From positions 1-24,418 of the forward strand of contig CAXGWI010000040.1 of NCBI GenBank assembly GCA_964013405.1: a DNA stretch of 24,418 nt, in the 5' to 3' direction. Of the stretch, positions 4,001 through 24,418 are shown in pieces; the stretch's first letter is position 1; each line of letters opens with the position of its first letter. The stretch comes from an uncultured Myxococcales bacterium (GTDB lineage Bacteria > Myxococcota > UBA4151). The translations under genes and the position numbers were made by a program. Under the pieces are notes generated by a model. It was not told the origin of the DNA and searched no databases. It was given only the letters and a program-made list of their open reading frames with translations.

Positions 4001-4487
4001 CCGCCAGTTTGAGTTGGCCATCTGCGGTAAAGAGCACATTGGCTGGTTTGAGGTCTCGGTGCAGTACGCCCCGGGCGTGACTGTGGGCCAGGCCCGCAAG
4101 GATGCGACTGAGCGTCTGGTGGAGCCGGGGCCAAGATGGGGTCGAGGTGCTGCCGAGCGTCCCCCCGCCACAGAATTCCATGGCCATCCATGGAGCCCCT
4201 GGAGGAATGGCCCCCTGGGTGAAGGCAGCCAGTCGCTCGTCGCTGCGGCCGTGATCGTAGATGGCGACGATGTGGGGATGTTCCAAGGCAGCCACAGCCT
4301 GAATCTCTCGGGCAAAGCGAGCTTCCATGCGATCTGGCGCAAGACCTTTGGGTACCTTGAGGAATTTAAGGGCGACGATACGGTTTAAGTCCGTGTGCCG
4401 GGCGGACCAGACCGTGCCCATCCCACCCCGGCCGATGGGTTCGATGAGCCGGAAGGCTCCGAGGCATTGTTCCGGGTCCAGGGCCAT
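1098..4487 (-). CDS. Ser/Thr protein kinase fused to a STAND-type (AAA_16-like) ATPase and TPR-like helical repeats, about 1129 aa
   Basis: Kinase motifs GRGGMGTV, VALK, HRDLKPAN, DFG, GTPAYMAPEQ; Walker A GPAGCGKS; Walker B LILVLDD; EGNPLF motif; Ala/Leu/Arg-rich helical C-terminus. Start moved to ATG 4487 (MALDPEQ) because the track's extension overlaps the divergent permease. Confidence 0.9.
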   Translation of the reverse strand: MALDPEQCLGAFRLIEPIGRGGMGTVWSARHTDLNRIVALKFLKVPKGLAPDRMEARFAREIQAVAALEHPHIVAIYDHGRSDERLAAFTQGAIPPGAPWMAMEFCGGGTLGSTSTPSWPRLHQTLSRILAGLAHSHARGVLHRDLKPANVLFTADGQLKLADFGLAFAMEDPLLESGSQIFGTPAYMAPEQVRGHWRDYSPSTDLFALGCLAFRLATGHRPFSATAEGPMAELLAQAESPLGPFQPALPLPPAFCPWVRRLLQRRPDQRFRLAADALASLPAASTAVEGEHGEPPPMPPPGSTNEPTIVSQPRHTIVLDSHRDIITETDQFPTGPMPSQPEAIAPPPLPSEIAPRQRPVLSPDDWRGGLVRRRQDVQSGLGLFGLRRPPPTGRAAHCQRLWTALMQVEEDQGPALVVIRGPAGCGKSHLLAWFASRAHEVGAAESFIAHHHPDQPAGEALTAMAQQALRCQDLHGSSLRQHLVQRLPESDADELADLCRLLAPRRWFQGRRFESQEARHRVLGRLLHSRARERPLILVLDDGLVDLDALNFVRGLLEWAHFPLLVAITSQREAEATHRENTALIEDLLEGARATEIRLEPLSTKATQKLTRDLLELEPELATQLALRAEGNPLFAQQLLADWISRGLLQMGRQGFELAGPMPPITEDLHSLWMDRLAHESEAVHQQLELGAAMDGDLHGEEWEAGLERAALPPLGSLPARLLKAGLLLPLDDGYRFSHGLLRESLMGRARQAGRWAQWREACADVVLQTYQAGLYSRAERAGLYLADTPRQLEALELLIEACRGLREALEFNGASRVANRAQQLLDGLDPDRRAEHGIKLDLQRARLALDQGQPVEGIAILERLARERDRCSDSLRLEIIYCLGLTLRNVPASRDRLGPLAAEGLNLASSSHDVARALHLAAEVERLEGRLDAAETTLQRALEAMLEAEDIRAWCTLAFFHFDLLLRRGETQTAKALMERVIERSEELGSRRLLSVALINGARLQRMMGAVDAATARLRRALRITERAGLSHGIWARLDLAWCHLLRGRLDKAERSRERLRREFEGSPSVMANAVFRALDNACQRLRRGDGQATERLEDALADLKQVDPLLSRALRADCDRLFPRPGP

Positions 4488-4595
4488 ACGGGCCCTTAGC
4501 GGGGCCCAGGCCGGATGCCAACCGGCCCTGTTGCTTGGAAGTTGTCGACGCCATCGATTGAACAGGTTAGGATAGAGCGCTGACTGGAGTTCCCT

Positions 4596-5792
4596 GTGCT
4601 GGACAACCTGTGGATGGTCATGACTGAGTTGGCCCCTTGGTTGATCCTGGGGGCAGTCATTGCTGGCCTGCTCCACGGCCTTTTGCCGCCAAACTTTGTC
4701 ATCCGCCACCTGAGGGGGCGGGGCGCTGTACTCAAGGCCGTGGCCCTGGGGGTGCCGATGCCCCTGTGCTCTTGCGGCGTGATTCCGGCCGGCCTCGGCC
4801 TGAAAAAGGATGGCGCAAGTGATGGTGCCAGCGTCGGCTTCTTGGTGAGCACGCCCCAAACAGGTGTGGACTCGATCCTCGTCAGTGCGAGCTTTCTGGG
4901 CTGGCCTTTTGCGTTGTTTAAAGTGCTCGCCGCCCTCGTGACGGGTTTGCTTGGGGGCTGGTTGACGGACGCGGCGACGGAGGCGCCCGGTGCCCCTGTA
5001 GAAAGTGCCTCAGAACAGCGGGACGCTGAACCTCGAGGTCTTCGGGAGATGATCGACCACGGCTTGGACATCATCCGCAGTATCTGGGGCTGGTTGTTGG
5101 TGGGGATCTTCGCATCGGCGGCGATCTCGACGTGGTTGCCACCGGAGCTTGTCAAAGACTTTAATGGCACAGGATTGGTTTTGGGCATCGCCTTCATGTT
5201 GGTGATCTCGTTGCCGCTCTACGTTTGTGCGACCGCCAGCGTCCCCATTGCCGCGGCCTTGGTCATGCAAGGCTTGCCGGCGGGCACAGCCATGGTCTTT
5301 TTGATGGCCGGACCCGCGACCAATCTGGCCACCATGGGTGCGGTCCTCCATGGCTTTGGTAAGCGGGTGTTGGCCATCTACCTGTCCGTTATCATCGTGG
5401 GCAGCGTCGTTGCTGCCTTTGCCTTCGACGCACTCATAGGAGTGGGGCCGATGAGTCATGGCGCCCATCATCACCACCCGGCGCCTTGGGCAACGGCTGC
5501 GGCGGTGGTCCTGACCGGAGCGATCCTCTGGTTTGCCTTCCAGGATTTGCGTCAATGGTGGGCCGGTCGGAGGCAAATCGATATCGACGGGGCTGAGATC
5601 ATTCATGATGTCAGCATCGAGGGGATGACCTGCATGGGTTGCGTGCGGAAATTAACCGGCAGGCTTGAAGCCACCGAGGGGGTCGATCAAGCCATCGTTC
5701 GTCTCGAGCCAGGCTCTGCCCGGGTTTCGGGAAGCATTAATCGGGAGGACTTAGAGGCGGTCATCCTCGCGTCAGGGTTTCGGGCGATCTAA
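4596..5792 (+). CDS. ArsP/DUF318-type metal permease with C-terminal heavy-metal-associated (HMA) domain
   Basis: Family motifs PMPLCSCGVIP, STPQTGVDS, PLYVCATASVPIAA, FLMAGPATN; His-rich loop SHGAHHHHP; HMA motif EGMTCMGCV; GGAG upstream of the GTG start. Confidence 0.85.
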   Translation: MLDNLWMVMTELAPWLILGAVIAGLLHGLLPPNFVIRHLRGRGAVLKAVALGVPMPLCSCGVIPAGLGLKKDGASDGASVGFLVSTPQTGVDSILVSASFLGWPFALFKVLAALVTGLLGGWLTDAATEAPGAPVESASEQRDAEPRGLREMIDHGLDIIRSIWGWLLVGIFASAAISTWLPPELVKDFNGTGLVLGIAFMLVISLPLYVCATASVPIAAALVMQGLPAGTAMVFLMAGPATNLATMGAVLHGFGKRVLAIYLSVIIVGSVVAAFAFDALIGVGPMSHGAHHHHPAPWATAAAVVLTGAILWFAFQDLRQWWAGRRQIDIDGAEIIHDVSIEGMTCMGCVRKLTGRLEATEGVDQAIVRLEPGSARVSGSINREDLEAVILASGFRAI

Positions 5793-8791: not shown

Positions 8792-9649
8792 ATGGCCAAG
8801 TCCCCAGACCCCAGTAAGGACCTGAGTGATTCGTTGGCTTGGCCAACCCTCGTTTTAGCCGCGGCATGCTTTGCGGGACTGGGTCTCAACACCGTTGCCG
8901 TGCTGCAAGGTGAACGGTCCCTCATCCTGGGTCTTCTGCTCAATACGCTCGCCATCTACCTCGCATTTACCCCCATGCACGATGCAGCCCATGGCGCCAT
9001 CAGCGGTGGTCGGGCCGGCCGTCGCTGGCTGGATGGGGTGGTGGGTTGGACCTGTGGTCTCTTGTTCCTCGCACCTTTCGTCGGCTTTCGACGCCTCCAC
9101 TTGCGGCACCACTCGGCCACCAATGACCCCCGCCGAGATCCCGACTACTGGGTGGTGTCTGACCATGGGCGGGGGGTCATGCTTCGCTGTCTCACCGTGA
9201 TCCCCCACTACTACCGATTCTTTCTGGCGGCCGGTGGTTTCGGGGGCGCTCAGCACAACAGCGAGCGAAGTCGGGCCATCGTGTTCCTCGGTGGTCTGGT
9301 GGCGACGATCTGGCTATTGATTACCGGTGGTTACCTTCATCAGGTGATGATGCTTTGGCTATTACCCGCGGTGCTTGCGAGCGGGATCTTGGCCTTCACC
9401 TTCGACTGGCTACCCCACCACCCCCATCGCAGTCGGGCTCGGTTTAAAGACACTCGGTTGCTACGGGGCTGGGGCTTGCACTGGCTGCTGGTGGCCCAGG
9501 ATCTCCATTTGGTTCACCACCTGCATCCTCGGGTGCCCTTCTATCGTTACCGCAAGCTCTATCGTCACCTCCGGCCCCAACTGGAAACAAAGGGGACGAG
9601 GATCGCGCAGCTCTGGCCTGGAGGCAGCGGATCGGAATCGGCGAGCTAG
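8792..9649 (+). CDS. Membrane fatty acid desaturase/hydroxylase superfamily protein (CrtR beta-carotene hydroxylase-like)
   Basis: Three His boxes HDAAH, HLRHH, HLVHH plus FDWLPHHP; several TM segments; starts 7 bp after the decarboxylase stop. Confidence 0.85.
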   Translation: MAKSPDPSKDLSDSLAWPTLVLAAACFAGLGLNTVAVLQGERSLILGLLLNTLAIYLAFTPMHDAAHGAISGGRAGRRWLDGVVGWTCGLLFLAPFVGFRRLHLRHHSATNDPRRDPDYWVVSDHGRGVMLRCLTVIPHYYRFFLAAGGFGGAQHNSERSRAIVFLGGLVATIWLLITGGYLHQVMMLWLLPAVLASGILAFTFDWLPHHPHRSRARFKDTRLLRGWGLHWLLVAQDLHLVHHLHPRVPFYRYRKLYRHLRPQLETKGTRIAQLWPGGSGSESAS

Positions 9650-10920
9650 GGGCAGAGGGCCAGGCAGGCTTCAGGATTCTCGCCGCGGACGCAACTTTCG
9701 CCCACTTGGGGTTCAAACAGTTCAAGCCAGCTCTCTCTCTGTGTGTCAAAGACCCAAACGTCATCGATAATGCCGCAATCTGTCTCTCCTGCGAAAAGGA
9801 TCCACTCCCCACGGGTCTCGTCCATTGCAGAAAGGTGAGCACTTCGTCGTTCTGGAGCCTCGAGATCGGGAACTGTAAAGTTGGGCGGGAAGTCACAAAA
9901 TCCGAAGGCTGCTTCTTCGATGGTTTCTCCTGGGCTTAGATTGATCCATTCGCTGCTGTTGAGGTCGTAGGACCAGGTGTCATTGTTGTTGGCCAGATCG
10001 CCGTCATTATGGCCACCGAAGAGAAGCAGGCGGTCGGTCGAAGCATCGTAGGCGATCGTGGACCAAATTCTCCCCATGGGAACGTTCGCTCCTCGTCCAT
10101 CGTGGAGCTGCTCCCAGCGCTGTTCGGCCAGGTCGAGGACCCATAGATCACCGAGGAAAGGTCCTTGCCAGGCATTGGCGTCGCCCCCGCCGTAGATGAA
10201 CAATCGTTGTCCTGCGGAGTCAACGGCGGCGGCGTGAAAGAGTCGAGGCTCGGGTTTTTCGCCCTCTGGGCGAATAGCTCGCCAGGCGCCGGTTTCTAGA
10301 TTGAGTGCGTAGGTGTCATTCTGTGGGCCAAAGGCCAAGCCATTGCGGCTCGTGTTACCACCGAAAACAATCATTTCACCCCGTTGGCGATCAAAGCCAC
10401 CAGCGGGGTTGGAGCGAGCTGTTGGACCCCCGTTTGTGGTTTCGATCTCACGCCACGTTCTCGTCGCTAAATCCAGCGCCCAAACATCACTAAAGTTGAT
10501 GTAGTCGCCTCGGTCCCGACGACGGAAACGACCCCCGAAGATCACCATCTGGTCCCCGGTCGGATCGTAAACAGCCATCCCGCGTGCCCGGGCCGGCGGC
10601 TTGTTGCCATCGATAAAGATCTCTTCGAAAGTAGCGCTCGCTGCGTCGTAGACCCAGAGGTCATCAAGCCCGACTGGGTGTGGTGCGGTCTGACAATCGA
10701 CAGGTAAGCCATCGTCACCACCAAAGAAGACCAGTTGCCGACGCTGTTCGTCAAAGGCGCCGAGCAATTCAGAGCGAGGCATCGGGCGTACTTTCTCAGC
10801 AGGCGGTATTGGTATGTTTTGTCCAGCATCCGGGGGTTCTATACCGACGTCTTCGGAGCCATTCGTGTTGGGAGAAGGGCATCCCATCACCAGAAGGGGT
10901 ACCAGAACAAAAATTCTCAT
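9646..10920 (-). CDS. Kelch-repeat (six-bladed beta-propeller) lipoprotein, 424 aa
   Basis: Start moved to ATG 10920 (MRIFVLVPLLVMGC, lipobox). Six repeats: VFFGG..LWVYD, VIFGG..VWALD, IVFGG..TYALN, FIYGG..LWVLD, LLFGG..TWSYD, ILFAG..VWVFD. Cys-rich C-terminus. Confidence 0.85.
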   Translation of the reverse strand: MRIFVLVPLLVMGCPSPNTNGSEDVGIEPPDAGQNIPIPPAEKVRPMPRSELLGAFDEQRRQLVFFGGDDGLPVDCQTAPHPVGLDDLWVYDAASATFEEIFIDGNKPPARARGMAVYDPTGDQMVIFGGRFRRRDRGDYINFSDVWALDLATRTWREIETTNGGPTARSNPAGGFDRQRGEMIVFGGNTSRNGLAFGPQNDTYALNLETGAWRAIRPEGEKPEPRLFHAAAVDSAGQRLFIYGGGDANAWQGPFLGDLWVLDLAEQRWEQLHDGRGANVPMGRIWSTIAYDASTDRLLLFGGHNDGDLANNNDTWSYDLNSSEWINLSPGETIEEAAFGFCDFPPNFTVPDLEAPERRSAHLSAMDETRGEWILFAGETDCGIIDDVWVFDTQRESWLELFEPQVGESCVRGENPEACLALCP

Positions 10921-11088
10921 TGGAACGCTCTCTTTGCGGGGGGACCCATACACTGGTTTTTCATCCAAAGCGTCATCAGAAGGTAACAAGAAATTCAGTG
11001 CAGCTTCGAATGAGATCACCCATGAATTGGTCACACATCAGAGAACACGAAGTGTCTTGAGCACACCGAGATATTCTCAAGTCTGCCG

Positions 11089-13371
11089 TTAGGGCGACGC
11101 ACCCGCAGTGATCCAAGAGGACAGAATCCGTAACTGACAGGCATCGAGGGGCTGTCCAGGGGGCATACGACCTCCGATGATCCCACCACCTCCTTCGACT
11201 TTCTCCCAGAGGTAGCTCTGCTCTGGCGAGCCTGGAACGACTATCCGGCGGCCGCTTTGTTGGGAGTCCTGTTGGGTTAAGCGAGCCTGCAAATCGGTGC
11301 CACTAAGGTAGAGGCCTGCAGCCTGATCACTCTCCCCGTGACATCCTGAGCCATTGCAGCTCCTGGCAAAGACTTGATCTCGGACGATATCAAAGGGTGC
11401 AGTCGCTCCTTCTGGAATGGGACAATCTTCGGGCTCGATCTCTACCGCTCGCATCCGTTCGATCTCCTCGAGCGTCAGCGGCCGGCTCTTGATGGGATCA
11501 TCGTGACCGATCAGGACGGTTGGCTCCCCGTCTCGAGTCTGGACCTGGTCTAAGCGCCACTCGACACCATCTCCATCGGTTTCGATATAGCGATCGGTAC
11601 CGAAGCCGACCACTTGGTCGAAGCGCTCCGCATTGGCCTCGTCTCCGGGGACGGTATGACAGCGCTCGCAACGCATGAAGGGACTCCATCGTTGCACGGT
11701 GTGGGGATGATAGGCCCGGTGGCCCATCCCGTTGGGCTCGAGTCGTTCCCCATTGCGCATGGGACCGGTGCGGACCTGCTTGTCGATCACCAGGGTGCCA
11801 TCGCCATCCACCGCCGAGAAAAACATCCGTTCGGTGGGCATGGAGGGCGTGATCTTTCCATCTGTCGAGAGCAGCAGGATTAAGTCGTCGGTACTCACCC
11901 AGCGCCGACTCCCTGAGATTTGGCCCGGCGTGGAAACCCCCGTGATGAGACTGCGCTGGACTCGCCTCATGTCCACATTGACATGGCAGCCATAGCAGGT
12001 GGGCAGCCAGCCGCTGTGGCAGGCATCGCAGGACAATTTGTCCAGATGAGAGAAGCCGTCTTCGTTTCGCCCCATCGAGCGGTGGAGGAAGGATTCCGGA
12101 CTGGCCCCTTGGATCACTCGGGCGATCTGCGTGACCTTAAGGCGTTTCTTTTGAACCTTCGTCGTGAGCCAAACATCCCCTTGGGCATCTCGCTCTAAGT
12201 TCTTCATGGGGTTACCGAGGCGGGTGGTCAGGTCGGTCTCCGCGTCACCGCTGCCGTGGCAGGTCTCGCAGCGAACCTCTGTGGCCATGTTGGTGTCATT
12301 GTAGAGGTGACCATCGCCGTGCACATCGTGGGATGTATGGCAATCGACACAGTCCATGCCCGCACGAAAGTGCACATCGGCCGGTGTCTCATCCACTTCG
12401 TTTCGAGTGTCCTCGTCGGTGATGTAGAAACTGGCGTCGTGACCATGGAGTGCCTCACCTAGGAACTCGGCATGTTCAGGTCGCAATCCGGCGCCAGCCC
12501 CCGGACGATAGCCCTTGAAAGAGGGACCGATGCGGGCCCCGCGATAATGGCAATGGAGGCACTGATCTGTCGGAATGGCGTTGGTCAGGCGGTGCTTTTC
12601 GGGATGGGGCGGTGCTTCCTTATCGATCATCGGATCATCGGAGAGGCTTCGGCCGTCGTCTCGATAGGGCATATGGCAGCCGGTACAACCGGAGCTGCGG
12701 TAGTCACCCTGGAACTTGTTGTCGCCGAAGTTCCACAGATGGCAGCGCATACAGGCCTTGGTGAGATAGAGATCTTGGAATGGTCCGATAGAGGTTTCAC
12801 CCGCTTGAATCCGCGGCTCCTCCATCCTGGTGAGCGCACCGACGGTGCCAGGCACGGCGCCCACCGCAAAGCTGGGGTCGCGCACGTCGTAGATCCCCTT
12901 GAGCGCGTTGGAGGTCCGTTGTCGCCCGGCCCGATAGCGGGCGACCCCAAGTTCACCGGAGAACGTCGCCATCTGATTGGTTTTGACGGTCTCGATAATG
13001 GCGGTGTGACAGGGACCGCAACTGGTCTCCGCAACCCGTAGATCCCCTGGGTTGATGAAGCGGAGATAATCCACTTCAACGGAGTCCAACTCGCCATGGG
13101 TGAGGTTCTTCAAAAAGTGCTCGGCGTTGGGACCGGGCTGAACGTGAGCATCGCTCATTTTTGGCTGGCTGCTGTCGCCGCCGTGGCAGTCGGTACAGCT
13201 TAGGTTTTTTCCATCCACAGGCGGGTGCGCCTCTTCGATGCCGTGGGGCGTGCCGTCGGCCTGAAGGGGGCGGTGGCAGGCGAGACAGGAGCCGCGATCG
13301 ACCTCAAGGGGGACAGGCGTCGGCCCGGGACAGGCGGCGAGCCAAAGCAGCATGGGCAAGATACGACGCAT
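11089..13371 (-). CDS. Multiheme c-type cytochrome lipoprotein (11 CXXCH plus a C-terminal CX4CH planctomycete-cytochrome-like domain)
   Basis: Lipobox LAAC (Cys14); CLACH, CTDCH, CGPCH, CMRCH, CTGCH, CLHCH, CVDCH, CETCH, CDACH, CYGCH, CERCH; C-terminal CNGSGCH...VVPGSPEQSYL...GRMPP...WITAGA. Confidence 0.92.
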   Translation of the reverse strand: MRRILPMLLWLAACPGPTPVPLEVDRGSCLACHRPLQADGTPHGIEEAHPPVDGKNLSCTDCHGGDSSQPKMSDAHVQPGPNAEHFLKNLTHGELDSVEVDYLRFINPGDLRVAETSCGPCHTAIIETVKTNQMATFSGELGVARYRAGRQRTSNALKGIYDVRDPSFAVGAVPGTVGALTRMEEPRIQAGETSIGPFQDLYLTKACMRCHLWNFGDNKFQGDYRSSGCTGCHMPYRDDGRSLSDDPMIDKEAPPHPEKHRLTNAIPTDQCLHCHYRGARIGPSFKGYRPGAGAGLRPEHAEFLGEALHGHDASFYITDEDTRNEVDETPADVHFRAGMDCVDCHTSHDVHGDGHLYNDTNMATEVRCETCHGSGDAETDLTTRLGNPMKNLERDAQGDVWLTTKVQKKRLKVTQIARVIQGASPESFLHRSMGRNEDGFSHLDKLSCDACHSGWLPTCYGCHVNVDMRRVQRSLITGVSTPGQISGSRRWVSTDDLILLLSTDGKITPSMPTERMFFSAVDGDGTLVIDKQVRTGPMRNGERLEPNGMGHRAYHPHTVQRWSPFMRCERCHTVPGDEANAERFDQVVGFGTDRYIETDGDGVEWRLDQVQTRDGEPTVLIGHDDPIKSRPLTLEEIERMRAVEIEPEDCPIPEGATAPFDIVRDQVFARSCNGSGCHGESDQAAGLYLSGTDLQARLTQQDSQQSGRRIVVPGSPEQSYLWEKVEGGGGIIGGRMPPGQPLDACQLRILSSWITAGASP

Positions 13372-13374
13372 AGA

Positions 13375-13887
13375 TCAGCCCGGATGGAGGACGACCTGGC
13401 GTTGATCAGACACGCTACGGTCTTGGACTCTAAAAGTGATGTTAAGCGGTTGCTCGACACCGTAAAGGCTTTCGAGGTGGCCGGCGAGATCATCGCCTCG
13501 GTAGGAGATGGGAATGGGAATATCGTAGGCCTCCAAGAAGCCCTCGGCAGTTCGGGAGAGGCGCAGGTCGTACTGAGTCTCTCCGATCCCATTGTCTTCA
13601 CCGAGCCCGGCCTTGATCCTTCCAAGGCTCCGCATACCGTTGACTCGAATGGATAGGTGCACCCAAACGCCCCCCTGAAATCCGTGGATGATGTGCATCT
13701 CCCCACCGGATTCAACCTCCGTAAAAAGTTGTTCCTCGTACACACCGGGGATCAGCCAAGGTTCACCGTCAAAGTCGACGGCATTAGGGTCGAGATCTTG
13801 TTGGGTCTCAATATCAGCAAAAAAGGGAGCATAATCTTCACCGCAACCGGTGATCAGAAGACTGAAACCGAGAAGCATTCTCATCAT
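13375..13887 (-). CDS. Hypothetical lipoprotein, 170 aa
   Basis: Start moved to ATG 13887 (MMRMLLGFSLLITGC, lipobox) with purine-rich GAGAGGG upstream; beta-rich body with HGFQGGVWVHLSIRV; stop lies 3 bp before the cytochrome start. Confidence 0.75.
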   Translation of the reverse strand: MMRMLLGFSLLITGCGEDYAPFFADIETQQDLDPNAVDFDGEPWLIPGVYEEQLFTEVESGGEMHIIHGFQGGVWVHLSIRVNGMRSLGRIKAGLGEDNGIGETQYDLRLSRTAEGFLEAYDIPIPISYRGDDLAGHLESLYGVEQPLNITFRVQDRSVSDQRQVVLHPG

Positions 13888-14056
13888 ACTCGCCCTCTCG
13901 CCTTGGTTCCCAACAGTTGACGACGTTGCTGTCATCCCCTTAGGACCAGTCATAGCACGGAAAAGTCGATTTGGCCGTTAAGTTTTAAAAATTCGACCAA
14001 GTCGCACCATTTACCGTGTTTCCCATCGCGTCCAAGGAAACTTAGGAGGAAGGTTA

Positions 14057-14461: not shown

Positions 14462-15943
14462 CTAGGGGGCCCGGCCCTGCTGAACCAGGGCCTCCCCCGG
14501 GTTGCCATCGCCTCCCATCGACTGGAACCAGACCACCCCGGCGACGAGCGCGAAGAGCAAAAGGATCACGGTGACGAGCGGGCCGCCAAGCATCTGGTTT
14601 TCTTGCTCCGGGCCTGGAGCGGGAGCGTCTTCTACCGCACGGTGCTCGGAGCTTGGGCTTCGAGCCGGTTGAACCGGTCGTGGCGAAGGGCTGGGCACAC
14701 CGGTCACACGGGTCGGCTCTTCCACGGATCTCGATTGGAGTTCGCCTGGGTTGGTAATCACAGTGGCATCATCGCCAGCGAGGGCCTGTGGTTCCGCGAG
14801 GTCACCCGTAGAGGCGATCACGGTCGCCTCCTCCGGGGCGCGCTCGGCGATGCCGAAGCTGCTCGCTTGGGCGACACGGGTTTGATCCTCTGGCGACGCA
14901 GTCTCGCCAGGGCCAACTTGACCAAAAACTTCATCGACAAGCTTCTGGGTCCCGAGGGGGGGGATGTCCCGGTTCGTATGGGGGTCGCCGACGATCCTTC
15001 CCTGTTGCCACCAGGCCTCAAACTCCTCCGTCGCCAGGCGGCCACCCACATGACGGAGGGTATTTCCCAAGGCTTTCGCCAATTGGGTACAGTCGTCGAA
15101 GCGAGCGTTGGGCGAGCGGTGAAGGCAGCGCATGACAATGGCTGTGAGACCGTCGGGAAGGTCGGTGGCGAGTCGGCCGAGGTGCGGCACGTCGGCTTTC
15201 TGGATACGTGTCAGGATACCGAGGTCGCTTTTTCCATCGAAGAGGCGTCCACCACAGAGCAGCTCGTAGAGTACGATCCCGAGGGTAAACTGATCGCTCC
15301 GCCCATCGAGGGGCCGGCCCTCTACCTGCTCCGGGCTCAGATAACCGAGCTTGCCTTTCACCACACCGATGGAGGTCTCCACTTGGTTGCTTGTGGCCCT
15401 TGCGATGCCAAAGTCGAGCAGCTTCGCATCCCCGGTCCGGGTGATCATAATGTTCTGGGGGCTGACATCGCGATGGACGACTTTGAGGGCCTTGCCATCG
15501 TAGTCCTTGAGGTCGTGGGCATAAGCGAGCGCATTGGCGATGTCGACAGCCATAGCGAGCACGACTCGCAAGGGCAGTTGGCCCATGGATTGGACAAGTT
15601 CTTGAAGTTCAGCCCCTTGAACGTGCTCCATCACAAGATAAAGGACGCCGTCGGCACTGCCGAAGTCCTCAACCCGGACGATGTTCGGGTGGTGGAGCAG
15701 TCCGGCCAGCCTCGCTTCGTCCTCAAATCTTGTCACGAACTCCGGTTGCTGGGCCATGTGTTCATGGATTTGTTTGATCACCACCCGCTGGGTGAAGTTC
15801 CCTGGCCCGGACTTCTCGGCCAGCCAAACCGTGCCCATGCCGCCGGCCCCCAGCATTTCAACCTTCCTATAGCGGCCAGCGAACAACTCGCTGGCTTGCC
15901 CGCTGTTTGGATTGGTGGGATGAGCCACAAGATACTCCGTCAC
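14462..15943 (-). CDS. Membrane-anchored Ser/Thr protein kinase (Pkn-type)
   Basis: GAGGMGTV, VVIK, HRDVSPQN, DFGIA, GKLGYLSPEQ; Pro/Thr-rich juxtamembrane region; TM LVTVILLLFALVAGVVWF; very short external tail. Confidence 0.92.
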   Translation of the reverse strand: MTEYLVAHPTNPNSGQASELFAGRYRKVEMLGAGGMGTVWLAEKSGPGNFTQRVVIKQIHEHMAQQPEFVTRFEDEARLAGLLHHPNIVRVEDFGSADGVLYLVMEHVQGAELQELVQSMGQLPLRVVLAMAVDIANALAYAHDLKDYDGKALKVVHRDVSPQNIMITRTGDAKLLDFGIARATSNQVETSIGVVKGKLGYLSPEQVEGRPLDGRSDQFTLGIVLYELLCGGRLFDGKSDLGILTRIQKADVPHLGRLATDLPDGLTAIVMRCLHRSPNARFDDCTQLAKALGNTLRHVGGRLATEEFEAWWQQGRIVGDPHTNRDIPPLGTQKLVDEVFGQVGPGETASPEDQTRVAQASSFGIAERAPEEATVIASTGDLAEPQALAGDDATVITNPGELQSRSVEEPTRVTGVPSPSPRPVQPARSPSSEHRAVEDAPAPGPEQENQMLGGPLVTVILLLFALVAGVVWFQSMGGDGNPGEALVQQGRAP

Positions 15944-16596: not shown

Positions 16597-18126
16597 ATGG
16601 CTGAGCGCGCTGGGATACGACGGCTTGTCCGGATTCTCTGCGGGGCTTTCTTTCGCGAGGTGGAGGTCATCGGTGACGACGATGTCCCCCGGGACCGTGG
16701 TGTTTTATTTATCGCGTGGCACCCGAACGGCATGTTGGACCCGATGCTCATGGTTGCGACGGCACCGCGCCACCCTCATTTTGGCGCTCGGCACGGAATT
16801 TTTCGTTGGCCTGGCCTCGCCTACTTGTTGAGGCGGGCAGGGGTTGTTCCCGTGTATCGGGCCATGGACCTTGGCGGCGATGCAGGGCGGGCTCGAGCGA
16901 AAACGAACAACGCCGAAAGCTTATCGGCCTTGGCTCAGATCGTCGCTGATGGGGGCATTGCCGGACTCTTTCCCGAAGGGGTCAGTCATGATGATCCCCA
17001 TCCCCAGGATCTGCGCACGGGTGCGGCTCGTATCTATGGGGAAGCCTGCCGTCTTGGTCATGGCTCCCGAGCGCCTGTGATCGTCCCCGTCGGGCTCCAC
17101 TATGATCGGAAGTCGCTGTTTCGATCGAAAGCCTTGATCGTTTATCACCCGCCGATGGAAGTCCCAGAGACCCTGGCCTACGACCCGTCTCTGGACGATG
17201 ATCCTGAGGCCCGGTGGCAGCAGGCCCGGGATCTCACCTTCGCGATGGAGGCCCAGTTAAAGCGGGTGGTGATGGCCACGGCCGACTGGCAAACGCACCA
17301 CCTACTACACCGTGTTCGCAAACTGGTGCGAGCGGAACGGGCCTGTCGCGCAGCGGCATCTCCCGGCCGAGCGAAGGTCAAGGAGCGGGTCTTGGGCTTT
17401 CGGCGCGTGTGGCTGGCTCACCAGGCCCTTGAATCCTCTTGTCCTGGAGCGGTGGATGCACTGCGCGTTGAAGTGGAGTCCTATCAAGAGGATTTGCGCG
17501 CTCTTGGCTTGAAGGATCACGAACTCGACCAATCCCCGGCCCTCGGCGGCTGGGGGATGAGCTTGCTCCTCCTCTTGCAGTTGATGTTCACCCATTTGCT
17601 CCTGCCACCCCTCATGGTGGTGGGTTATCTCGTCAATGGCCCGGTGGCGCTCCTCCTGCAGCTGCTTTGCTGGATTGTTGCGGGCGAGAAGAAAGACGAA
17701 GCCACGATCAAGCTTTTCGTCGGCGCGGTGCTCTTTCCAGCGACATGGGTCCTTTTGGGCATTTTTGCGGGGCACTACTACCATGAGTTGAAGGGTCTCT
17801 ATCCGACCTTACCCGGTGCGCCTTGGAGTTTGGGGTTGTTTTGTTCTGTCCTCGCCATGGTGGGCGGTGGCTTGGCCGTTCGAAACCTTCGCTTGGCTCA
17901 GCGGATGCGGCGGATCGTCCGTGTCCGGTTGACTCGGCGCTTACAGGCAGCCGCCATCGAGCGATTGAAATCGACTCGGGCCGCCATCTATGACCGACTG
18001 ATCACTGTGAGTGATGGGCTCCCATTACCTGGCGAAGTTGCGCCGGACGGGCGGATTATCGACGGCGCCGACGAGGGCGCTTCTTTTTCTTCGCCGGGGC
18101 TTTCTTCGGTGCCGCCGGAGCGATGA
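16597..18126 (+). CDS. PlsC/GPAT-family acyltransferase with C-terminal transmembrane region
   Basis: HPNGMLD, VVPVYR, FPEGVSH, LRTGAAR, IVPVGLHY; three to four TM segments in the C-terminal third; alternative GTG start at 16594. Confidence 0.88.
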   Translation: MAERAGIRRLVRILCGAFFREVEVIGDDDVPRDRGVLFIAWHPNGMLDPMLMVATAPRHPHFGARHGIFRWPGLAYLLRRAGVVPVYRAMDLGGDAGRARAKTNNAESLSALAQIVADGGIAGLFPEGVSHDDPHPQDLRTGAARIYGEACRLGHGSRAPVIVPVGLHYDRKSLFRSKALIVYHPPMEVPETLAYDPSLDDDPEARWQQARDLTFAMEAQLKRVVMATADWQTHHLLHRVRKLVRAERACRAAASPGRAKVKERVLGFRRVWLAHQALESSCPGAVDALRVEVESYQEDLRALGLKDHELDQSPALGGWGMSLLLLLQLMFTHLLLPPLMVVGYLVNGPVALLLQLLCWIVAGEKKDEATIKLFVGAVLFPATWVLLGIFAGHYYHELKGLYPTLPGAPWSLGLFCSVLAMVGGGLAVRNLRLAQRMRRIVRVRLTRRLQAAAIERLKSTRAAIYDRLITVSDGLPLPGEVAPDGRIIDGADEGASFSSPGLSSVPPER

Positions 18127-19390
18127 TCAGCGGCGATTCTTCCTGAGGCGCTTCTATCGAACTCGGTCGGCTCGGCTCGCTGGTCGAGGGCAGGGCTTCA
18201 GGGGGACTGCTGGGCAAGAGAAACCAAGCACACAGGGCGATTAGGATGCCTAAGACCAGCCCGATGCCGAGGCTTCGCGCTTTCTTCCCCCCAGTGATCT
18301 TTGTGTCCTCGCTGCGGAGTCGGGCCATTTCGCGCATCTCGGAGGTTACGATTCGAGTTCGTGGCTCGTCGGCTCCCCTGGCCTCCTGGTGGGTTGCGGC
18401 ACTCGTCTGCGTTCCGGAGTAACCCACGGCTCGACGGTCGTTGATCAACGACTCCGTGAGCATGGGCAGAGGCCTTCCGGAGGGGGGCAGGGTATCAAGC
18501 CACCGCTTCAGGTCGTCGCGCTCAAGCCGCCCGCCGAGTTGCTCCAGGCTTTGATCGAGGATCTTGGCCACTTGAGCGCAGTTAGCGTGGCGGTATCGGG
18601 GCGATTTGGCCGTGCACTGGGCGATCGCTTTCACCACCTGAATGGGGGTTTCTGGCGTCAGGCGATTGGCCGCCGGAACCCAGCACTTCTTCACAGCCTT
18701 CAGGGTTTCGAGGTCGTCGTCGCGCATGAAGAGACGGGCCCGGCAGACGAGCTCCCAGAGCACAACCCCCAATGAGAACTGGTCGCTTTGCGGCGACACG
18801 TTGGCCCCATCGAGTTGCTCCGGACTGAAGTAACTCATCTTGCCTTTCAGTACGCCAGCTGCCGTCTTCTGCTCGTTGGTGGTGGCCCGGGCGATGCCGA
18901 AGTCCAACAGCTTGGCTTGGCCCAGTTCGGTCAGGAGAATATTGTCGGGCGAGACGTCTCGGTGGACGATCTCAAGGGGGCGACCATCGGGGGCTTTGAG
19001 TTCGTGGGCGTAATGAAGGGCCCGCGCGATGTCGGCGCCGATCTGCAGGGTCAAGCGTAGCGGTAAGCCCACCCCCGCAGCCAAGGCCCGTTGGGAGAGG
19101 GACTTTATGTTGTCGCCCGTGACGTGCTCAAGGACGATATACGGTCGCCCGTTCTCCTCGCTGAAGTCCTCTAGGCGGACGATATTGGGGTGGTTAAGCA
19201 GGCTGGCCAACCGCGCTTCGTCGTGGAAGCGCTGAACGACATCGGGGTCATCGGCCAAATGCTGATGGATCTGTTTGATGACTGTTTGCCGCTGAAAGCC
19301 ACTGGGCCCCCGCTGCCGCGCAAGGTAGACCTGGGCCATACCCCCTTGGCCGAGCCGTTCGATAATTTCGTAGGGGCCGATGGAATCCAC
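18056..19390 (-). CDS. Membrane-anchored Ser/Thr protein kinase (Pkn-type) with polybasic C-terminal tail
   Basis: GQGGMAQV, TVIK, HRDVSPDN, DFGIA, GKMSYFSPEQ; TM LGIGLVLGILIALCAWFLL; tail KKAPAKKKKRPRRRRR. Confidence 0.92.
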   Translation of the reverse strand: MDSIGPYEIIERLGQGGMAQVYLARQRGPSGFQRQTVIKQIHQHLADDPDVVQRFHDEARLASLLNHPNIVRLEDFSEENGRPYIVLEHVTGDNIKSLSQRALAAGVGLPLRLTLQIGADIARALHYAHELKAPDGRPLEIVHRDVSPDNILLTELGQAKLLDFGIARATTNEQKTAAGVLKGKMSYFSPEQLDGANVSPQSDQFSLGVVLWELVCRARLFMRDDDLETLKAVKKCWVPAANRLTPETPIQVVKAIAQCTAKSPRYRHANCAQVAKILDQSLEQLGGRLERDDLKRWLDTLPPSGRPLPMLTESLINDRRAVGYSGTQTSAATHQEARGADEPRTRIVTSEMREMARLRSEDTKITGGKKARSLGIGLVLGILIALCAWFLLPSSPPEALPSTSEPSRPSSIEAPQEESPLIIAPAAPKKAPAKKKKRPRRRRR

Positions 19391-20509: not shown

Positions 20510-21019
20510 GTGATCTGGTTGCTTTCCTTGGTCCTGCTCGCTGCCCCTGCAGATGAGCTACCAGAGATGATCCCGCTGTCGGAGTTGCCGACCACCGGCA
20601 AGCCGGCTGCGGACTTTTCCTTGCCCCTGTTTAGCGGTGGTACCTTCAAACTCAGCGCCCAGCGGGGCAAGCCCGTGATCATCAGCTTCTGGGCTTCTTG
20701 GTGTGGACCCTGCCGAGAGGAGTTGCCCGAACTGAATCGCTTCGCCAACAAGCGTAAGGATGTGGTGGTCGTGGCCGTCAACACCGACAGGAACCGCAGC
20801 GCGGGCGAGCGCTTCTACAAGGAACTCAAACTTACCCTGCCGGCGGTCTACGACGAAAACAGCGCCGCCATCAGCAACTACGATGTCGAGACCTTTCCGA
20901 CGACCTACGTCATCGACCAGCAAGGGACCGTCGTGCTGCGGAGTTCGGGCTACAACAGCAAGTATGGGCTGAAGCCCCTCTTCAATTTCGTGAACCGCCT
21001 GCTCGGCCAGAAGCGATAA
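20510..21019 (+). CDS. TlpA/ResA-family exported thiol-disulfide reductase
   Basis: Signal peptide; AADFSLP, GKPVIISFWASWCGPCREELP, cis-Pro loop FPTTYVID; GAGGAG SD. Confidence 0.92.
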   Translation: MIWLLSLVLLAAPADELPEMIPLSELPTTGKPAADFSLPLFSGGTFKLSAQRGKPVIISFWASWCGPCREELPELNRFANKRKDVVVVAVNTDRNRSAGERFYKELKLTLPAVYDENSAAISNYDVETFPTTYVIDQQGTVVLRSSGYNSKYGLKPLFNFVNRLLGQKR

Positions 21020-21028
21020 GGGGGCGCC

Positions 21029-23098
21029 ATGAGTCTTGCCGATGAACTCAAAAAGCTCGCTGAACTACGGGACGCCGGTGTCCTGACCCAGGACGAGTTC
21101 GATGACCAAAAAGCCCGCTTGCTGGCGGGGGGCTCCCAGGAGGCTCCGGCCGAAGCGCCCCAAGCCACCGAAGAGCCAGTCGCCCCCGAACCGATGCCGT
21201 CGGCATCGTCGGCAGCGAGCGAAAAAACAGCGCCTGCTTGGGCCTATATGCTTCTGATTCTCGTCGCCGCCTTTGGCGTCTTCGTGGGCGCGCTGATGAC
21301 CCAGCACCACGATGTGATGGCCTACGACCCCAATGCGCAAGAGGGGCAGTTGATTGGATGTGCAGCGGAGGAGGGCGTCAACTGCGACGTGGTCAACACG
21401 TCGAGCTACTCCGAAGTCGCCGGAGTGCCCATCGCGACCCTCGCCATCCCCGTCTATCTCATGGTTCTGATCCTGAGCATCGTCGGTCTCGTGAAGAAGC
21501 GCCGGGAGCCCATGACGTTGATCTTGGCCCTTGGCGTGGGGATGAGCCTTTACTCGGTCTTTCTCTTCTACATCTCCAAAGTGGAGTTACAGAATCTGTG
21601 CACGTGGTGCGTTCGCAACTATATCGCTAGCTTTGCGGTACTGGGAATAGCACTCATCGCCGGCGCCTGGCGGGATCGAGTCGTGCCCATGGCCCTCGTG
21701 AAAGCCTCCCTGATCCTCTTCGTAGGTGCTTCACTCGTCGCCATGGGCGGCGAGCAGATGTACCGCCGTAGTCTCATCGGTGAGCAGCCCAAGGAACTTA
21801 GCCAGAAAGCGGACACTGCAAAGCTTTCGAGTTCCGATGAGGGGGGTGTGCTCAAGCCCCGGAGCTTTAAGTCCTTTGCTGTGGATCGTCGGGGGCGTGA
21901 GGTTCCCTACGGAACGGTGAAAGTGGGCCCCGGCAACCGCTGGCGTGGCAACCCGGATGCCGAGGTCGTCGTCATCGAGTATGCCGACCTCGAATGCCCG
22001 ATTTGTCGTAACGCAGCTGTGCACTTTGATCGCCTTTACGCTGCCTATGGGGACCGGGTTCTCTTTGTCTTTAAGCACTTCCCCATCAATCGCCGCTGTA
22101 ACGGTCACGTACGGCGCAGCAAACATAACTATGCTTGTATTGCGGCGAAGGCCGCCGAGTGCGCTGGTGACCAAGGGCACTTCTGGCACTACATCGAAAC
22201 AACCTTTCGCAATCAGCACAATTTGGGGGCCCGTAGTTTGCGGTCCCATGCGAAGGCCATGGGTTTGGACATGAAGAAGTTCAATCAATGCCTCAGAAAA
22301 CGGGGCACGCCCGATGGTGTCAAGAATGACACGGCCGAACTGGGTGGTTTGGAGAAGATGCGCAAGTCGACACCTAAGGTCCTGATTAACGGCGAACTCT
22401 ACACCGGCGGTCTGAGCGCCGAGGGCCTAGCTCGGGAGATCGAACGGCGTCTCGGTACCGATGAAGGCGAGGCAGCCTTCCGGGCTGAGGCCTTCGGTGG
22501 CGGTGGCAATGTCCCCACCGAGGTCCCCACGGATCTGCCGGCGATGCAATCGGTGGAGTACGGCGATTATAAGTTCAAGATCGACCGCTTCGAGTCTGGT
22601 CGGGACGATGACGGCAAGGCCATCACCGGCAAGCGAGTGATTCCGGCCACGGGGATCACCTGGCATGGGGCGAAGGAAGCCTGTGAGGCCGCTGGTAAGC
22701 GCCTGTGCCGGGCCGAGGAGTGGCTGGCTGCCTGTCAGGGCGCGGCACCGAAAGACGACAATGGGAACGGCCGAGTCTTCGATGATCGAATCGAGGGCAG
22801 CCTGTACCCCTATGGTGATGTCCACCGGCCCGGTCGCTGCTGGGACGGACATAAGCGGGATGCATATCGACCGGTCTACACCGGCGAGCACCCGGCCTGC
22901 GTGAGCCGGGATGGGGTCTACGACCTCACCGGCAATATGGCGGAATGGGTGGGGGACAGCCCGGACAAGGCGGTCCTGATGGGTGGTTTCTACGAAGACC
23001 GGCGACCCAGTTGTTTGACCTATGATCCCAACTGGGGCCCCAGTCAGTCGTCGATCTACACGGGCTTCCGTTGCTGTAGTGATGGGGAGGGCAAGTGA
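21029..23098 (+). CDS. SHOCT-VKOR-DsbA-FGE/sulfatase-modifying-factor-like fusion protein
   Basis: SHOCT: ADELKKLAELRDAGVLTQDEFDDQKARLL. VKOR: loop Cys pair C-AAEEGVN-C, SSYSEVAGVPIA, CTWC, five TMs. DsbA: EYADLECPIC, FKHFP, TPKVLING. FGE-like: IDRFE, AKEACEAAGKRLC..EEW, YPYG, GVYDLTGNMAEWV, GFRCC. Confidence 0.88.
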   Translation: MSLADELKKLAELRDAGVLTQDEFDDQKARLLAGGSQEAPAEAPQATEEPVAPEPMPSASSAASEKTAPAWAYMLLILVAAFGVFVGALMTQHHDVMAYDPNAQEGQLIGCAAEEGVNCDVVNTSSYSEVAGVPIATLAIPVYLMVLILSIVGLVKKRREPMTLILALGVGMSLYSVFLFYISKVELQNLCTWCVRNYIASFAVLGIALIAGAWRDRVVPMALVKASLILFVGASLVAMGGEQMYRRSLIGEQPKELSQKADTAKLSSSDEGGVLKPRSFKSFAVDRRGREVPYGTVKVGPGNRWRGNPDAEVVVIEYADLECPICRNAAVHFDRLYAAYGDRVLFVFKHFPINRRCNGHVRRSKHNYACIAAKAAECAGDQGHFWHYIETTFRNQHNLGARSLRSHAKAMGLDMKKFNQCLRKRGTPDGVKNDTAELGGLEKMRKSTPKVLINGELYTGGLSAEGLAREIERRLGTDEGEAAFRAEAFGGGGNVPTEVPTDLPAMQSVEYGDYKFKIDRFESGRDDDGKAITGKRVIPATGITWHGAKEACEAAGKRLCRAEEWLAACQGAAPKDDNGNGRVFDDRIEGSLYPYGDVHRPGRCWDGHKRDAYRPVYTGEHPACVSRDGVYDLTGNMAEWVGDSPDKAVLMGGFYEDRRPSCLTYDPNWGPSQSSIYTGFRCCSDGEGK

Positions 23099-24418
23099 TG
23101 AGCGAGCACACAGATAAACAGGTCTCTCTCGGCTTGGTGATCGCTGCGGTTCTTGCCGGGACCGGGTTGATGATTGGGCTGCAACTCGCCGGTGCCGATG
23201 GGGGTGCTGGACTCGCCACACCCAGTGCCGTCAGCGCTGGTGGCGAGGGCATCACCCGAGCCCGTTTACCTTTGGCCGATAACATTCAGGGCGAAGGTCG
23301 TTGGCCGGCCAAAGTTGCGGCGGTGGCCTACATCGATTTGCACGATGAGTTATCGGCTCGGCTCATGGCCGACCTCCGTAGTCTGCAGGCGGAGCTGGGC
23401 GAAGACCTCTTCCTCGCCACCAAGCAGTTTCCCCGGGCCCATGACCGAGCCTCCGTCAGTGCAGCCCGCGCGGTGATCGCTGCCGAGTCCCTCGGTGCTG
23501 GGCCCAAGTTCACAGCCCACCTTCAGCGTCATCGCGCCACCCTCAGTCACGCAGACCTGCCAGCGCTCGCCACCGAGATCGGCATCGATGGGGCCAAGCT
23601 CAAAGGGTTGATGGATGGGGAAGAGACGAAGAAGACGCTTGCTGCCCATCTCGCAGAGGCCAAGGCCCTCGGCCTGGAGCGTCGCCCGAGTCTCTTTGTC
23701 AACGGCGTGCCGGTCCATCACGTGGTTCCGAAAGAGGCTCTCAAAGCGCTCATTCTGCGGGAGCGGACCGTGATCGAATCGCTGGGTAGCGATTTGAAGG
23801 CCGCCCACAAAAAGCTGCTCGCTCGGGCCGGGGAGCCGGTGAAAACGGCGGAAGCCGGGGTCAAAGAGATCAAGGAGCCCCCCCGAGAGGGGAGCTTACC
23901 CCCCACGATTACACCGGAAGACTTCAGTTGGGGCGATCCCAACGCGCCCGTCCAGATCGTCACCTTCGCCGACTACCAATGTCCCTATTGCTCGAAGACG
24001 GCCGAGATGCTGGCGAAGCTCAAAAAGACCTACAAGCCCGAAGAGATCTATATCGTCTTTAAGAATTTGCCACTCACCTGGTTGCACCCCAGCGCACCCA
24101 TGGCAGCCCGGGCCGCCATCGCGTCCGGTCGCCAAGGCAAGTTCTGGGAGTTTCATGATCTGCTCTTTCAGCGGCAGTCGGAGTTGAAGACCTTGGGCAA
24201 AGATGCCCTGTGGCCCTGGATCCGGGAGCTCAAGTTAGATGAGCGCAAGTTCATCGAGGATATGACCAGCCGAGCGACCCGAGCCCAGGTCGAGGCCGAT
24301 TCTGCGGAAGCCCGCCGGATTGGTATCTACACCACACCGAACTTCTTCATTAACGGGCGGCACCGTCCTGGCTTGAGCCTGCAGGTGGTCCAGCGGATGG
24401 TGGAGCAGGCCCGGAAGT
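23098..24418 (+). CDS. Partial (3'-truncated) membrane-anchored tandem DsbA-family protein
   Basis: Not in the ORF track (no stop in window). ATG 23098 overlaps the upstream TGA. N-terminal TM LGLVIAAVLAGTGLMIGL; domain 1 YIDLHDELS...KQFP...RPSLFVNG; domain 2 WGDPNAPVQIVTFADYQCPYC (CPYC at 23980-23991), QGKFWEFHD, TTPNFFING. Confidence 0.9.
   Translation, partial: MSEHTDKQVSLGLVIAAVLAGTGLMIGLQLAGADGGAGLATPSAVSAGGEGITRARLPLADNIQGEGRWPAKVAAVAYIDLHDELSARLMADLRSLQAELGEDLFLATKQFPRAHDRASVSAARAVIAAESLGAGPKFTAHLQRHRATLSHADLPALATEIGIDGAKLKGLMDGEETKKTLAAHLAEAKALGLERRPSLFVNGVPVHHVVPKEALKALILRERTVIESLGSDLKAAHKKLLARAGEPVKTAEAGVKEIKEPPREGSLPPTITPEDFSWGDPNAPVQIVTFADYQCPYCSKTAEMLAKLKKTYKPEEIYIVFKNLPLTWLHPSAPMAARAAIASGRQGKFWEFHDLLFQRQSELKTLGKDALWPWIRELKLDERKFIEDMTSRATRAQVEADSAEARRIGIYTTPNFFINGRHRPGLSLQVVQRMVEQARK

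Follow-up and report, generated by a model that had tools for sequence, protein, structure and literature searches.

A probable VKOR-DsbA oxidase joined to an FGE-type lectin-fold domain and coupled to a TlpA-like thioredoxin in uncultured myxobacteria

The window analyzed here is a whole stretch of 24,418 nucleotides (nt) from an uncultured Myxococcales bacterium (GenBank assembly GCA_964013405.1, contig CAXGWI010000040.1), and our subject is a pair of neighboring genes near its end. The larger is an uninterrupted open reading frame (ORF) of 689 amino acids (21029..23098, +) that joins a SHOCT, a VKOR, a DsbA-like and an FGE-like domain, as supported by Pfam and an AlphaFold model. Nine nt upstream lies the gene of an exported TlpA/ResA-like thioredoxin (20510..21019, +; Pfam AhpC-TSA/Redoxin, NCBIfam ResA), which carries a WCGPC motif (20702-20713, +) and, right after the signal peptide, the sequence PEMIP (20561..20575, +), an instance of a PE[ML][IV]P pattern found in loci where TlpA is encoded separately (the split form).

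The four domains each score above the curated Pfam cut-off, and the cysteines lie where a preliminary description of this DNA had placed them: C111/C119 and CTWC in the VKOR domain, CPIC, C357 and C370 in the DsbA-like domain, and eight in the FGE-like domain; the T448-P449 loop was likewise located correctly. All 18 cysteines are invariant, gaps aside, in 121 close rows and nearly invariant in a 204-row alignment spanning both subfamilies, with the redox cysteines each kept in 190–204 of about 200 rows. Hydropathy indicates five transmembrane segments (residues 72-90, 137-155, 164-182, 194-212 and 221-239). Basic stretches follow the second and fourth in our reading of hydropathy and charge, which places the N-terminus with SHOCT in the cytoplasm and the DsbA-like and FGE-like domains outside. 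The AlphaFold model of the protein has a predicted local distance difference test (pLDDT) score of 89.3 and a predicted template modeling (pTM) score of 0.78, the latter reached despite a 68-residue tail, and a Foldseek search with it returned DsbA-class proteins, FGE/EgtB/CalU17 and the Synechococcus VKOR.

A genome of the same genus encodes the four domains in identical order within one ORF at 87% identity. Synonymous sites between the two copies are saturated, and the proportion of nonsynonymous differences (pN) is 0.035-0.10 across the four domains, against 0.64-0.89 for synonymous differences (pS). Because of this copy, and because pN lies far below pS in every domain, misassembly and gene decay are both excluded for the ORF. 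An assembly artefact or decaying chimera could draw on the public contigs, which leave some junctions unbridged: they cover the gene as separate stretches, contain no joints and leave the SHOCT-VKOR junction unspanned. We consider it refuted and its probability negligible, given the independent same-genus ORF under purifying selection and 176 homologue matches. The misassembly against which the preliminary description had cautioned is thereby excluded. The sequencing runs that match are marine metagenomes whose reads gave fragments only, and five short read pieces from two RNA libraries match the gene, which is no proof of transcription.

Nor is the architecture an oddity. Among the 120 homologues listed from the search, 119 carry VKOR, DsbA and FGE-like domains at 39-87% identity, and the relatives are labeled mostly Myxococcota; VKOR-DsbA-FGE is a conserved large family, mostly of uncultured myxobacteria. 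The preliminary description had called the architecture unfamiliar; this stands insofar as we found no publication on it, but an arrangement conserved in 119 of 120 listed homologues is not exceptional. In a sample of 301 genomes of the phylum (E 1e-30), full or partial fusion matches occurred only in the organism's own family, in a search limited to three scored candidates per genome, which does not pick up the distant fused form.

What is conserved, however, extends beyond the ORF. All 22 distinct, complete three-domain loci have a TlpA gene immediately upstream, its stop overlapping the start of the fusion in 17 and separated from it by 9 nt in three. The count omits duplicates (L003 equals L014, L018 equals L207, L181 equals L012), the frameshifted L102 and loci truncated at the end of a contig (L004, L005, L011, L015, L020, L103, L105 and L106); L011, L015 and L105 do show TlpA. 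In L102 the cassette is present twice in tandem, with breaks in the frame, and one copy reads on into TlpA, probably as a result of assembly errors. The PE[ML][IV]P pattern occurs in 21 of the 22 loci, whose TlpA genes were chosen by adjacency, and a stricter version of it in none of 102 generic TlpA matches; we infer that PEMIP marks the split-form TlpA and is a candidate docking peptide. A CGPC motif is present in 29 of 32 split TlpA rows.

Elsewhere in the family the thioredoxin is part of the same chain. In a diverse set of 53 matches, 12 are complete VKOR-DsbA-FGE-TlpA chains with TlpA at the C-terminus, and the best 150 of the representatives clustered at 50% identity include 23 complete four-domain and 12 complete three-domain chains. 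The split TlpA is homologous to the fused domain (hhalign probability 100). In genomes around G301 the FGE-like domain is present in 18 of 41, and the 20 loci divide into nine with TlpA fused and 11 with TlpA split and upstream. Plain VKOR-DsbA loci, by comparison, are without TlpA in the available DNA in 10 of 13 cases and have a different TlpA in the other three. Since TlpA is always adjacent or fused, the conserved unit is VKOR-DsbA-FGE-like plus TlpA, and the window holds its split form. The protein had been described as a self-contained disulfide-forming machine; this does not hold, as the conserved system includes TlpA, encoded here by the separate upstream gene. In a distant clade of plain VKOR-DsbA proteins (L094, L096, L099) a different, TlpA-like lipoprotein gene follows, and coupling between VKOR-DsbA and TlpA may have arisen more than once.

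The oxidase part is the most readily interpreted. The VKOR domain with its fifth transmembrane helix (21251..21745, +; Pfam residues 75-208, E 4.6e-21) contains the loop cysteine pair C111/C119 (21359-21385, +) and CTWC at residues 191-194 (21599-21610, +); C111, C119, C191 and C194 are kept in 190-193 of about 200 rows, and the domain matches the Synechococcus VKOR structures 4nv6, 4nv2 and 3kp9. In the model the fifth helix comprises residues 221-250 and places the thioredoxin-fold domain in the periplasm. This DsbA-like domain (21932..22444, +; Pfam Thioredoxin_4, residues 302-472, E 4.7e-22) matches ScsC, BdbD and DsbA in Foldseek, and has CPIC at residues 323-326 (21995-22006, +), the predicted cis-proline loop T448-P449 (22370-22375, +) and four extra invariant cysteines at 357, 370, 378 and 421. 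Known fusions such as Synechococcus VKOR-thioredoxin (3kp9/4nv2/4nv6) and Clostridium VKOR-DsbA share the five-helix VKOR with its loop cysteine pair and CxxC; the thioredoxin-fold domain that follows is likewise periplasmic and has a CxxC and a cis-proline loop. The window family differs from them by its FGE-type lectin-fold domain, its obligate TlpA partner and the four additional DsbA cysteines, to which the genus adds SHOCT. VKOR-thioredoxin/DsbA fusions are noted for proteobacteria and spirochetes in the accessible part of PMC4555120, and a Clostridium sp. VKOR-DsbA fusion (R7I132) complements E. coli dsbA dsbB according to the accessible part of PMC12453122. With this precedent and with all redox cysteines conserved, the oxidase reading of the preliminary description is upheld: by analogy, the VKOR-DsbA part very probably oxidizes exported proteins and passes the electrons to quinone.

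The FGE-like domain (22538..23083, +) matches the Pfam FGE-sulfatase profile at residues 531-644 with 41.4 bits against a cut-off of 23.3, so the C-terminal region belongs where it had been assigned. When the domain of a relative is superposed on solved structures, the binding protein TvpA comes first (Z 17.2, root-mean-square deviation 2.4, 158 residues aligned), followed by CalU17, pFGE, EgtB, TaqVP and Mtd. The fold and core motifs are common to TvpA, Mtd, TaqVP, pFGE/SUMF2, CalU17, the EgtB C-terminal domain, CarF and PorK (Z 15-17, root-mean-square deviation 2.3-3.2), and the window domain is distinguished from them by being shorter, by eight invariant cysteines, by an acidic insertion and by being joined to a disulfide oxidase. 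That insertion (D576-G590; 22754..22798, +) is a gap in the pFGE alignment and is highly conserved (D576 in 203 of 204 rows, D585 in 190, D586 in 193 and G590 in 202 of 203). It follows a Dx[DN]x[DN]G pattern, which we take to be of the Ca2+-binding loop type, and is predicted to be a likely Ca2+-binding loop. None of the 50 best solved-structure matches listed has one chain spanning an FGE-type lectin-fold domain and a thioredoxin.

Similarity to SUMF1/FGE itself is weak in sequence and clear in fold, and the window domain, predicted to be periplasmic and disulfide-locked, departs from it in the catalytic loop. Of the cysteine pair that we take to be catalytic and copper-binding in true FGE, one position is occupied by another residue and the other falls inside a deletion, in a weakly aligned stretch (2.2 bits) that is anchored by flanking GG and GFRC; the family's single cysteine in this region aligns, equally weakly, with the third FGE cysteine. 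The earlier suspicion that the two-cysteine copper site is lacking is therefore borne out, within the limits of a weak but anchored alignment. That the domain is an enzyme, in sulfatase activation or a PvdO/EgtB-like oxidation for which the thiol domains would supply or remove electrons, might be suggested by the Pfam match, by its strong conservation and by five sulfatase-family matches in the genome. We regard this as very improbable: besides the uncounterparted catalytic pair, the only invariants across subfamilies are fold residues, the eight paired cysteines and the acidic loop, the surface where an active site would lie differs freely from one subfamily to the next, and no sulfatase is among the recurrent neighbors listed for 33 compared loci. 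The C-terminal surface (residues 654-681; 22988..23071, +) occupies the place where lectin-fold proteins have their ligand site. It is conserved inside subfamilies and differs between them, a pattern that one would expect in these sequences if the surface binds something, but not if it were an active site. Lectin folds serve generally to bind ligands, at a site near the C-terminus, as far as the accessible part of PMC5006420 describes them. We predict the domain to be a non-catalytic dock for TlpA. Eleven further ORFs with FGE domains, many cysteine-rich and secreted, were found in the genome (contigs C1, C10, C30, C32, C33, C87, C128, C173 and C204), and the catalytic cysteine pair is missing in the six of 11 in which the pattern captured the C-terminal loop.

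Support for a dock comes from a fused relative, for which a natural FGE-like plus TlpA fragment (from G344, with a 20-residue linker) was predicted with pLDDT 96.5 and pTM 0.92. As freely moving domains would not give such a pTM, the two are confidently placed relative to each other, and they are predicted to pack rigidly. Chains of the DsbA-FGE-TlpA type that persist after loss of VKOR and of the DsbA CxxC (P0243, P0254, P0273) also point to a scaffold role. These chains and P0178 (DsbA-FGE-TlpA or DsbA-FGE, with TlpA motifs partly degenerate) are possibly a non-redox offshoot of the cassette.

Several observations weigh against TlpA as the ligand, or at least do not favor it. The fragment prediction concerns a relative and, having neither a contact map nor a flexible-linker control, shows neither the surface used nor that the window's two separate proteins bind each other. 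No clear signal between domains emerged from mean-field coupling analysis (204 rows, effective 174): 22 of the 25 top pairs are intra-domain, the inter-domain pairs include topologically impossible ones, and V331-V598 and E114-G460 are leads only. A comparison of charge complementarity between PEMIP and the C-terminal site gave no clear result. Finally, the window lineage has rewritten its putative ligand surface and its DsbA surface and kept PEMIP, which would also fit binding of substrates by the former. The window protein departs from consensus, together with the two relatives closest to it, at nine of 15 C-terminal-site columns (mean 0.32 in 118 others) and at 12-14 of 60 conserved DsbA columns, compared with only 2-4 of 33 VKOR and 3-4 of 58 FGE-core columns; the DsbA motif has changed from the family's CGYC to CPIC. 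In a quick tree of the VKOR and DsbA parts (87 rows), the clade of three-domain proteins to which the window protein belongs is supported and has a long stem (0.61); the three-domain state requires five changes on this tree.

This joint divergence of the two surfaces speaks for a proposal along the lines of the preliminary description, one compatible with docking: that the FGE-like domain mainly captures cysteine-rich exported substrates near the DsbA site, as a lectin chaperone offers its clients to a disulfide enzyme. TlpA would then be merely co-expressed or bound elsewhere. The proposal would also account for a C-terminal site conserved within subfamilies and different between them, accords with the general ligand binding of lectin folds (PMC5006420, accessible part), and gains from the plain VKOR-DsbA paralogues kept beside the fusion in several relatives (two to four VKORs in four of five genomes), which suggest specialized clients. 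Nevertheless, no substrate gene is conserved nearby in the 33 compared loci, where nothing beyond TlpA is conserved and the recurring neighbors are generic kinases, helicases and two-component genes. The window protein is the only VKOR found in its genome, as is the case in three of five family relatives, and must therefore serve broadly; the tight coupling to TlpA would, moreover, be left unexplained. We judge substrate capture as the main function to be rather unlikely, and TlpA the better-supported partner of the FGE-like domain.

What the docked TlpA does depends on its redox character. It shares the TlpA fold, WCGPC and an export signal with the reducing thioredoxins ResA, TlpA and CcmG; its best family matches are ResA, StoA and TlpA, and its best solved relatives include ResA. 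It scores 95.8 bits against the curated ResA cut-off of 170 and is thus not ResA itself. TlpA-fold proteins can also be oxidants, which counts against a reducing role: M. tuberculosis DsbF, which has an oxidizing character, is among the structural matches. TlpA might accordingly be a second oxidant or electron shuttle, oxidized by DsbA or VKOR and delivering disulfides away from the membrane. That it is fused to an oxidase or translationally coupled 1:1 with one, that the split form has a signal peptide and is probably soluble, and that DsbF/DsbE are among its structural relatives are all in keeping with such a shuttle. The CGPC motif, of the thioredoxin type usual in reductants, and the matches to ResA, StoA and TlpA speak against it, as does a genome in which other DsbA modules could act as shuttles and no DsbC was found. 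A second oxidant thus seems unlikely to us.

On balance we lean, by a modest degree, towards a VKOR-DsbA oxidase with a lectin-fold dock for a probably reducing, bond-correcting TlpA. By homology, electrons would pass from the substrate to the DsbA CxxC, the VKOR loop cysteines, the VKOR CxxC and quinone. The lectin-fold domain would hold the TlpA encoded upstream, uniting bond making and bond correction in one complex; the split TlpA would dock as in the fused relative, PEMIP perhaps replacing the covalent linker, although for the window's own pair we infer this docking from that relative. Kept reduced by the DsbD-type protein of the genome, TlpA would break or reshuffle wrong bonds in multi-cysteine lipoproteins, the job of DsbC in E. 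coli. A DsbD-type electron donor is common to both systems; in E. coli the pathways are apart, whereas the probable reductant of the window family is fused or coupled to its oxidase.

The host genome (3.9 Mb, 94% complete) is in keeping with this division of labor. It has one DsbD-type protein elsewhere and several other DsbA modules, and neither DsbB nor DsbC_N, the DsbC dimerization domain, was found in it. Of five family relatives, three have one VKOR, two have none that we found, and none has DsbB; the genomes with two to four VKORs are more distant. Among putative lipoproteins, as obtained from crude gene calls that include false ORFs, 82% of the 197 with cysteine have an even number, compared with 50% of cytoplasmic proteins, and 113 of 208 have at least 10 cysteines, a composition that shows heavy disulfide demand at the level of sequence. 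Two results count against the favored reading: a 93%-complete family member (G028) has no VKOR match, and MqnA was not found in the window genome, where other quinone routes were not searched. G028 also lacks a DsbB match, which may reflect an assembly gap or another oxidase.

A more far-reaching version, which we offer only tentatively, is that the lectin-fold adaptor keeps a reducing thioredoxin beside, yet insulated from, a quinone-linked oxidase and serves to present clients as well. Such an oxidase-plus-isomerase would replace DsbA/DsbB/DsbC in cysteine-rich myxobacteria; in the window lineage it would have become the sole housekeeping oxidase, with rewritten binding surfaces and an added cytoplasmic tag. 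It would be loosely like the pairing of lectin and disulfide isomerase in the endoplasmic reticulum.

The usual view of bacteria is that the enzymes forming disulfides and those reducing them are kept apart. Oxidation and isomerization follow separate and largely antagonistic pathways in E. coli, according to the accessible part of PMC4460558, and for this reason a coupled design is of real interest. If true, a lectin-fold domain tying a probable reductant to an oxidase in hundreds of proteins would be a different design, one suited to organisms with very cysteine-rich surfaces, and the family might help to produce multi-disulfide proteins. VKOR-thioredoxin fusions are already known (PMC4555120, accessible part); VKOR-DsbA-FGE with TlpA is apparently undescribed, as no report describing a VKOR-DsbA-FGE(-TlpA) protein came up in a literature search that mostly did not extend to subscription papers.

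The N-terminal SHOCT domain (residues 5-32; 21041..21124, +; PF09851, 34.8 bits against a cut-off of 27) stands apart from this unit. In the AlphaFold model it forms two helices, as is typical of SHOCT, on an Ala/Pro/Glu-rich linker (21131..21232, +) that is the sole disordered part (pLDDT <50 at residues 38-61) and is 24% identical to the same-genus copy. The domain itself is under purifying selection (pN 0.10 against pS 0.83 in that comparison). It occurs in one of 120 listed homologues, the same-genus protein, and is absent from 54 fused-form rows and from 16 further representatives, including a 66%-identical sister protein (P0004). Being missing from all homologues checked except the same-genus protein, SHOCT was, on these sequences, added late and at the level of the genus. 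We regard it as an accessory tag in the cytoplasm, outside the core mechanism, and the SHOCT-bearing form is a minor local variant of the family, so that "SHOCT-VKOR-DsbA-FGE", proposed as a four-domain unit, is not a meaningful one. SHOCT had also been invoked as an established oligomerization motif. Oligomerization is not established: the paper that defined SHOCT tested it in an experiment that gave no support, as its accessible part reports (PMC3581485). The same source already describes N-terminal SHOCT on membrane proteins, and its supplementary files, as far as accessible, contain no architecture with VKOR or DsbA.

Downstream, a gene overlapping the stop of the fusion (23098..24418, +) runs off the contig and encodes a membrane anchor, a DsbA module lacking CXXC and a second DsbA module with CPYC. 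A tandem-DsbA gene at this position is restricted to the organism's own family (L002-L005, L014), and its product may act as a further client for VKOR. Further genes of the window lie on the reverse strand. An apparent operon (9646-13953, -) comprises a 192-residue protein without a Pfam match, a 760-residue multiheme cytochrome c with a Planctomycete cytochrome c domain (Pfam) and a Kelch-repeat protein. Three genes read from their sequence as Ser/Thr kinase-like (1098-4859, 14462-15943 and 18056-19390, all -) are typical of myxobacteria; the first is of great length and contains repeats as well as an ATPase-like motif.

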